From the IMG/VR virus record IMGVR_UViG_2778261559_000019: 7,590 nt of DNA; one strand, written 5' to 3'. This DNA comes from a virus (lineage: Duplodnaviria; Heunggongvirae; Uroviricota; Caudoviricetes). Every line of letters begins with the position of its first letter. Within the stretch, counting starts at the first letter, position 1. Made by a program: the position numbers and the translations under genes. Positions 6,145 through 6,168 of this stretch are shown here, piece after piece. The notes beneath the pieces were generated by a model that was given only the letters and a program-made list of their open reading frames with translations, searched no databases and was not told the origin of the DNA.

Positions 6145-6168
6145 CCGATATGGGAATTCCCATATCGG
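6145..6168. promoter_or_regulatory. 24-bp perfect palindrome (CCGATATGGG-aatt-CCCATATCGG) upstream of the predicted hok promoter
   Basis: Perfect inverted repeat centred about 58 bp upstream of the predicted hok mRNA start; not followed by a T-run on either strand. Confidence 0.3.

Follow-up and report, generated by a model that had tools for sequence, protein, structure and literature searches.

A perfect palindrome upstream of a prophage hok gene is probably the vestige of a deleted KilA-N gene

The DNA analysed here, a stretch of 7,590 nt referred to below as the window, belongs to a lambdoid prophage of the 'PPompW' type from Escherichia coli O157:H7. Its genes are arranged in the order cI-like repressor and Cro-like regulator, YdaT-family gene, replication genes, DUF1627, fimbrial pseudogene, paa and hokD, and Pfam supports the last three protein-coding assignments of this order. 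One of the genes of the replication region, which is split by IS1203 in strain PV15-279 (L001, 1808-4160), is an uninterrupted ORF of 371 aa in the window (2070-3185), which is thus a different O157-like genome or represents the ancestral state. The frameshifted fimbrial-protein pseudogene (4573-5106) and paa, the product of which has the SBP_bac_11 fold, are cargo inserted between DUF1627 and hok. The same slot in other prophages is occupied by a 35-aa membrane-like ORF (e.g., L002), an ORF6N-domain gene or an intact KilA-N gene, and this succession of different genes marks it as a cargo-exchange hotspot. The features on which the analysis is focused are listed in Table 1.

Table 1. Coordinates of the palindrome and the neighbouring features in the window
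Feature	Position	Strand	Basis or description
paa, AcfC-family adhesin, cargo gene to the left of the remnant	5267-6025	+	Pfam; terminator-like site at 6032-6045
Probable KilA-N gene remnant, non-coding, with stop codons beside the palindrome	6127-6176	-	blastn, alignment, KilA-N HMM
Perfect palindrome CCGATATGGGAATTCCCATATCGG	6145-6168	.	Minus-strand reading (x)-D-M-G-I-P-I-S, the conserved core of a KilA-N subfamily
Start of the hok module ('aaaacggtttgc...') and inferred hok promoter	6172-6213	+	Homology common to palindrome-less hok loci
hok mRNA leader and sok antisense region	6214-6363	+	Rfam RF01794 (sok), 103.9 bits, E = 2e-24, model positions 1-157
hokD-type toxin gene, 51 aa	6361-6516	+	Pfam HOK_GEF, 82.9 bits; HokD in RefSeq

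The inferred hok promoter was recognized by eye from a -35 hexamer TTGCTG (6180-6185) and a -10 hexamer TAGGAT (6202-6207) separated by a 16-nt spacer; it falls below the threshold of the consensus promoter scan, which reported no sigma-70-like site at this position. The toxin gene is followed by a terminator-like site at 6585-6602. The longest ORF over hok (6304-6516) is in the hok frame and adds an N-terminal extension of 19 codons; in plasmid R1, mok overlaps hok in a different frame. A weak Rfam match to isrK at 6525-6606 (24.9 bits, E = 0.004, with the gathering score set at 50) takes in the terminator as well as the hok transcript's 3' end, and is probably the terminator hairpin of the hok mRNA rather than a separate sRNA.

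The palindrome CCGATATGGGAATTCCCATATCGG consists of two 12-nt arms that are 100% complementary, with no spacer, and thus has the dyad symmetry of an operator for a dimeric factor. It is the only copy in the window, even when 3 mismatches are permitted, and was reproduced in none of 200 shuffles; by simple arithmetic, the number of perfect 24-bp palindromes expected by chance in 7.6 kb is 7590/4^12, or ~5e-4. When folded as single-stranded DNA, it gives a hairpin with 10 bp in the stem and 4 nt in the loop (~-10 to -11 kcal/mol, z = -3.3 to -3.5). Neither the plus-strand flank, GCGAAAACGG, nor the minus-strand flank, AATGAATTCA, is a T-run, and the terminator scan of the window reported only the sites at 6032-6045 and 6585-6602, so that an intrinsic terminator is out. 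No RNA family was detected on either strand of 6145-6168 in an Rfam search at E <= 1. With the 5' end of the hok mRNA inferred from the start of the Rfam model at 6214, the centre of the palindrome (6156.5) lies ~58 nt upstream of it, and the palindrome spans positions -47 to -70 relative to this start. Thus, an earlier note on this DNA, made from the sequence alone, was correct in describing a perfect 24-bp palindrome that is not a terminator and is located ~58 bp from the hok start, with the proviso that the start itself is inferred.

The same note proposed that the palindrome could be a binding site for a dimeric regulator of hok. To draw hok loci independently of the palindrome, we retrieved them from viral contigs by the hok-leader pattern alone and inspected 170 nt upstream; 13 of the 80 leader-pattern loci listed were already known from the palindrome search. 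In the ~100 newly drawn loci, the palindrome was absent within these 170 nt, and 2 loci carried degenerate copies, one with a 1-nt deletion (L303) and the other reading GATGCGGGACTTCCCACATC (L210). The homology between the palindrome-less loci and the window begins at 'aaaacggtttgc' (~6172), directly to the right of the palindrome, and various small ORFs are found upstream. The Hok ORF is intact in 84 of 89 palindrome-less loci, 49 of which encode the exact peptide of the window; the hok promoter, leader, sok and toxin are the same in loci that never had the palindrome or have lost it. Plasmid hok loci match the leader alone and do not contain the palindrome. Among 5426 complete E. coli genomes, the hok leader region was found in 3377 and the palindrome region in 732. 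The spacing, too, is variable: the palindrome and the leader motif GCGGGTGC are 45 nt apart in loci of the window type and 63 nt apart in those of the L046/L018/L210 type, a shift of 18 nt that is out of helical phase, and in the E. coli locus L306 described below the palindrome is 526 nt from the hok leader. Thus, being missing from most hok loci and variably spaced where present, the palindrome is neither conserved nor fixed in position among functional-looking hok loci. Absence from homologous functional loci is one of the two findings that the earlier note itself had named as together refuting its operator proposal, the other being that deletion leaves hok expression unaffected; the absence applies to most such loci, and the proposal is not supported.

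The palindrome also does not correspond to any of the known cis elements of hok/sok systems (the hok and sok promoters, tac/fbi, ucb/dcb and sokT; Gerdes and co-workers; RF01794). It adjoins a complete hokD-type locus but ends at 6168, outside the Rfam model and hence outside the hok mRNA/Sok RNA transcription unit, and is absent from plasmid and from most chromosomal and prophage hok loci; a recent survey of Hok does not mention it. For hok biology, the result is therefore a negative one, and the palindrome should not be taken as a hok operator.

The source of the palindrome is suggested by its occurrence elsewhere. The central 20-mer, GATATGGGAATTCCCATATC, was found in >120 viral contigs, with ~80 copies located upstream of hok and the others mostly inside KilA-N ORFs. 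The non-hok copies come from contigs with G+C contents of 21-66%, and are mostly in frame in ORFs of 240-470 aa, where they encode D-M-G-I-P-I-S within the peptide context ...LSxDMGIPISELIQxxKGGxxxxQGTWVHP.... The wide range of G+C contents was the reason for considering a small mobile palindromic element or a REP-like repeat, which we rejected given that the copies are located in KilA-N ORFs or have KilA-N-like flanks. In particular, most of the other isolated copies that were checked (L021, L028, L066 and L079) have such flanks, indicating that the palindrome is a feature of KilA-N genes and not a mobile unit. Intrinsic terminators and REP/BIME sequences share with the palindrome an intergenic stem-loop potential, but the palindrome lacks a T-run, and its copies are not dispersed among intergenic regions, being confined to positions upstream of hok and to KilA-N genes or their remnants.

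The most informative locus is that of E. coli Z1002 (L306), in which a plus-strand Hok/Gef gene and an intact, minus-strand KilA-N gene (94.5 bits with Pfam PF04383) are divergently oriented. The synteny is that of the window, namely, YdaT, DUF1627, then KilA-N (minus) and hok (plus), and the palindrome (6010-6034) is located inside the KilA-N gene. When the segment 6127-6186 of the window was compared with E. coli genomes using blastn, annotated KilA-N CDSs matched over 6135-6175 (41 nt, 88%). Moreover, a divergent hok gene 367 nt upstream of KilA-N is present in 11 of 43 E. coli-like KilA-N loci, and these 11 are exactly the loci with the identical 20-mer (L123-L133). Compared with intact genes of this family (PF04383; E. 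coli WP_000200358.1 and the 'DNA-binding protein' of phage vB_EcoS-673R7), the window retains 23-24 nt identical to the D-M-G-I-P-I-S codons and ~13-18 nt of similar flank, in the same orientation opposite to hok and in the same prophage slot. In contrast to these genes, the window has no ORF here; stop codons are located beside the palindrome, and the coding sequence lacks ~170 nt on the N-terminal side and ~560 nt on the C-terminal side.

The homology to the KilA-N CDS extends beyond the palindrome. The left flank (6127-6144) is recognizably related to the KilA-N codons for S-E-L-I-Q, and the right flank (6169-6176) shows weak similarity to the gene. The left flanks form a series of decreasing similarity, L306 > L210 > L046/L018 > window: the L210 relic agrees with the intact gene at 20 of 23 positions by manual count; L046 and L018 have kept a left flank of ~25 nt and a right flank of 12-19 nt; and the relics of the window and L002 types have ~18 nt on the left, a 2-nt deletion, stop codons and almost nothing on the right. 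Decayed copies were also found in complete genomes, specifically, HCP5S3 (1-nt deletion) and UC4316 (GGGCATTCCC). The window does not contain an intact member of the family, as the alignment covers approximately hmm positions 29-68 with 15 bits, is interrupted by in-frame stops and corresponds to no RefSeq CDS. The KilA-N HMM scores 15.4 bits on the minus strand of the window and 10.4 bits on the plus strand, and in all five of five relic types the score is higher on the strand opposite to hok. At the protein level, the similarity outside DMGIPIS is weak, ~5 bits over a DMGIPIS-only background, so that the assignment as a remnant rests on the DNA flanks, synteny and orientation. An extension of the remnant into the hok promoter was considered as well; the alignment up to hmm position 29 amounts to 3-4 residues there, and we do not claim it.

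Taken together, the sequence identity with KilA-N genes, the shared synteny and orientation, the absence from most hok loci and the decaying copies make it probable that the palindrome is a non-functional vestige of a deleted KilA-N gene rather than a control site of hok. Under this scenario, the variable slot that separates hok from the replication genes would once have been occupied by a KilA-N gene, which would have been encoded on the minus strand in divergent orientation to hok and, like other genes of its subfamily, would have contained the 24-nt palindrome within the codons for x-D-M-G-I-P-I-S-x. A deletion or recombination event would then have taken away the N-terminal part of the gene, producing a right joint at the edge of the palindrome, beside the 'aaaacggtttgc' of the hok module, and the C-terminal part would have been removed or replaced, with a left joint ~18 nt from the palindrome beyond which paa or the 35-aa ORF is found. 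The residue would be a segment of ~45-50 nt, incapable of encoding a protein. We infer both the order of these events and the lack of a regulatory effect. Furthermore, the hok allele beside the intact KilA-N gene in L306 differs from that of the window around the -35 hexamer, so that a single simple deletion in precisely that arrangement did not produce the window. The alternative offered in the earlier note, that of a recombination or insertion scar, came close, given that flanks, synteny and orientation point to a KilA-N remnant left behind by deletion or recombination.

Most likely, the remnant does nothing for hok. That it is located where activators often bind counts against the remnant reading; nevertheless, a role in hok transcription appears unlikely. 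As the probable vestige of a lost gene, the palindrome is a marker of a mosaic joint at which the neighbouring gene has disappeared, an ordinary product of prophage mosaicism, and can be used as such in the annotation of lambdoid prophages in O157:H7 and related strains, considering the 732 complete genomes that carry the region. A second short inverted repeat, ATGCCGC-GCCA-GCGGCAT (6061-6084), which is not followed by a T-run, is located between the paa terminator and the remnant and is confined to paa-type loci.

Within the family of relics represented by the window and L002, the 22-nt core is invariant in ~10 haplotypes, and the 24 nt to the right of it vary at ~8 sites. The invariant core could reflect upkeep by selection, conversion from intact copies or hairpin-templated correction, and its contrast with the variable right flank could equally result from recombination among hok alleles or from young age.

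To assess how the palindrome is maintained in the genes from which it appears to originate, we sampled KilA-N genes without regard to the palindrome, using peptide patterns for viral contigs (L123-L202) and, for GTDB genomes (L307-L426), a QGTWVHP codon pattern applied to a single genome of each species; of the 121 candidates obtained with the codon pattern, 85 were confirmed as KilA-N by the HMM. The combined sample included 112 distinct DNA versions and the genome-derived set (A2) 73 versions; among the taxa represented are Dehalococcoidia, Nostocales, Verrucomicrobiota, Nitrospirae, Lachnospiraceae, Bacteroides, and Alpha-, Beta- and Gammaproteobacteria. Within the 24-nt segment that has G-I-P at its centre, the palindrome is perfect in 31 of the 112 versions, a single pair is mismatched in 33, and two pairs are mismatched in 19. 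The stem itself is not a single sequence: the 22 perfect palindromes among the 73 genome-derived versions have 13 different stem sequences, and the variants include CCGATATGGG, CCGAAACGGG, TAGATATCGG, CCGTTACGGG, CCGCTACGGG, GTGATATGGG and CCGATGTTGG, with CCGAAACGGGAATTCCCGTTTCGG as a further one. The peptide shifts with the stem (DMGIPIS, ETGIPVS, DIGIPIS, VTGIPVT, DVGIPTS), and the third base of the Pro codon, which takes all four values, complements the third base of codon 2 in 100 of the 112 versions.

Conservation of the peptide alone as the cause of the DNA identity was excluded by a synonymous-codon null, under which 5.92 +/- 0.11 of 10 positions are paired, compared with 8.20 observed, and 0.36 perfect stems are expected, compared with 36 observed. 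In the A2 set, 81.5% of the cells are paired, versus 65.0 +/- 1.0 in shuffles, and the covariation score is 0.416, versus 0.165 in shuffles, none of which (0/500) reached the observed value, and 0.06-0.08 in slid controls. Two-sided changes were found at all 10 stem pairs in these 73 versions. Thus, the compensatory changes that characterize a conserved stem-loop are present in the KilA-N genes, to which, and not to the window, this result applies.

The complementarity stops sharply at pair 12, which defines an element of exactly 24 nt, and no structure was detected beyond these 24 nt in KilA-N genes. In the loop, complementarity between the third base of the Gly codon and that of the Ile codon does not exceed chance, and when G-I-P is replaced, as in L412, L414 and L410, the outer stem stays and the loop is different. 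These two observations rule out a full double-stranded DNA dyad in favour of a stem with a loop. Judging from this sample of sequences, the pattern in KilA-N genes is a stem-loop signature and not one conserved recognition sequence. Near-perfect stems contain, on the sense strand, 15 G.T and 31 A.C mismatches; this comparison, in which a sense-strand RNA would be expected to show more G.U than A.C, is confounded by coding constraints and relatedness. KilA-N genes showed no bias towards antisense placement with respect to their neighbours.

Three causes may be envisaged for this pattern. First, an RNA hairpin may limit the expression of a toxic gene. Second, the element may act as a DNA hairpin or cruciform, or as a putative site for the KilA-N protein itself. 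Third, the arms may be homogenized neutrally by hairpin-templated (quasipalindrome) mutation, which proceeds by template switching within hairpins. Quasipalindrome hotspots would explain the two-sided changes in the arms, the unconstrained 4 bases of the loop and the perfect palindromes in non-coding remnants; they represent, however, a mutational process and not a function, and do not explain the presence of a 24-nt palindrome across phyla in the KilA-N family in particular. Between an element selected family-wide in KilA-N genes and hairpin-templated homogenization, we consider the chances to be even.

In either case, a coding segment of the KilA-N domain is constrained at the nucleic acid level across phyla, and the residues on either side of G-I-P co-vary because pairing is required of their codons (Met/Ile, Thr/Val, Val/Thr, and Asp..Ser against Val..Thr). 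If under selection, the palindrome would represent a hitherto undescribed cis-element in a phage gene family that is very common; if mutational in origin, it would be a clean natural case of hairpin-templated concerted evolution shaping a protein sequence. No description of a KilA-N palindrome, hairpin, cruciform or covariation was found in Rfam or in the searchable literature, and the palindrome in the KilA-N coding sequence may thus be new.

Against this background, alternatives to a non-functional remnant at the hok locus can be weighed. The strong maintenance of hairpin potential in KilA-N genes raises the question of whether the copy in the window is itself an autonomous nucleic acid element kept in place by selection. 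The element would be a cruciform or hairpin formed by the DNA or a hairpin in read-through RNA, and might serve as a recombination joint for cargo exchange or as a point of processing or pausing in the early-right transcript. Such a role would be consistent with the retention of the palindrome in relics with different flanks and with the position of the right joint with the hok module at the palindrome edge, and the 24-bp identity among prophages could serve short-homology recombination. However, the palindrome search finds only copies that are exact palindromes, so that its ascertainment is biased, and the leader-based sample contains degenerate copies and many loci without the palindrome. 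Furthermore, the left cargo joint is 18 nt away rather than at the palindrome, no recombination breakpoint was seen at the palindrome among KilA-N alleles, and most of the other isolated copies checked, with their KilA-N-like flanks, are remnants as well. We therefore consider an autonomous element to be unlikely.

A second alternative is that a dimeric DNA-binding protein acts on the palindrome to activate or repress the hok promoter, tying hok to the state of the phage. One candidate would be a KilA-N protein supplied by a phage that is co-resident or incoming, provided that these proteins recognize the palindrome in their own genes. This possibility draws on the perfect dyad 12 nt upstream of the inferred -35 hexamer, on the invariant core in one relic family and on the nature of KilA-N, which is a family of DNA-binding domains. 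There is also a precedent: the Roi protein of phage HK022, encoded between P and Q, reportedly binds a site inside its own gene, and the iterons of the lambda origin are located inside gene O. Like these elements, the KilA-N palindrome is a dyad element lodged in a gene whose product is a phage DNA-binding protein and which belongs to the P-Q region of lambdoid phages; unlike them, it is present as a single copy and not an array, its stem varies with compensatory changes, and it is a candidate site only.

The distribution of the palindrome argues against an operator, as most hok loci that share the promoter and toxin do not have it and its spacing from the leader, where it does occur, is variable and out of phase. 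A cognate protein would also often be missing: the closest intact KilA-N gene (>=78% identity) is present in 137 of the 5426 E. coli genomes, compared with 732 for the palindrome region, and O157:H7 is not represented among the 30 intact-KilA-N genome matches listed. No half-sites were found in the promoter region of the L306 KilA-N gene, and in the window, including its immunity region, the only half-site other than the palindrome is one 10/12 match (TTGATATGGGAA, 4736-4747, in the fimbrial pseudogene), which is at chance level and has no second arm; an operator network of additional half-sites is thereby rejected. Finally, the stem sequences in KilA-N genes vary freely with complementarity kept, which fits a hairpin better than one recognition sequence. 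We regard an operator as very improbable. Similarly, the complete chain of assumptions, in which the 24-nt hairpin or cruciform of KilA-N genes would be selected as an autoregulatory site or expression limiter and its orphan copy at hok would be active, for instance bound by phage KilA-N proteins and making hok responsive to infection, is in our view highly doubtful.

That the palindrome arose by chance or is a scar of the paa cargo insertion, as its location between paa and hok might suggest, has a negligible probability in view of the chance expectation of ~5e-4 per window and of the presence of the same sequence in the KilA-N genes of distant bacteria and in loci without paa (L002 and many others), the latter refuting the paa scar.

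In two contigs, at the opposite ends of the G+C range, the motif is duplicated in tandem and in frame. In the contig with 21% G+C, one ORF contains two such copies (L097, ~3239; ...DMGIPIPGISSLKSDMGIPIS...), and in the contig with 66% G+C, two copies encode DMGIPIS...GIPVS, with ACGGGAATTCCCGT (L066, ~13856). The L097 protein appears, by eye, to have a C-terminal domain similar to T5orf172/GIY-YIG.
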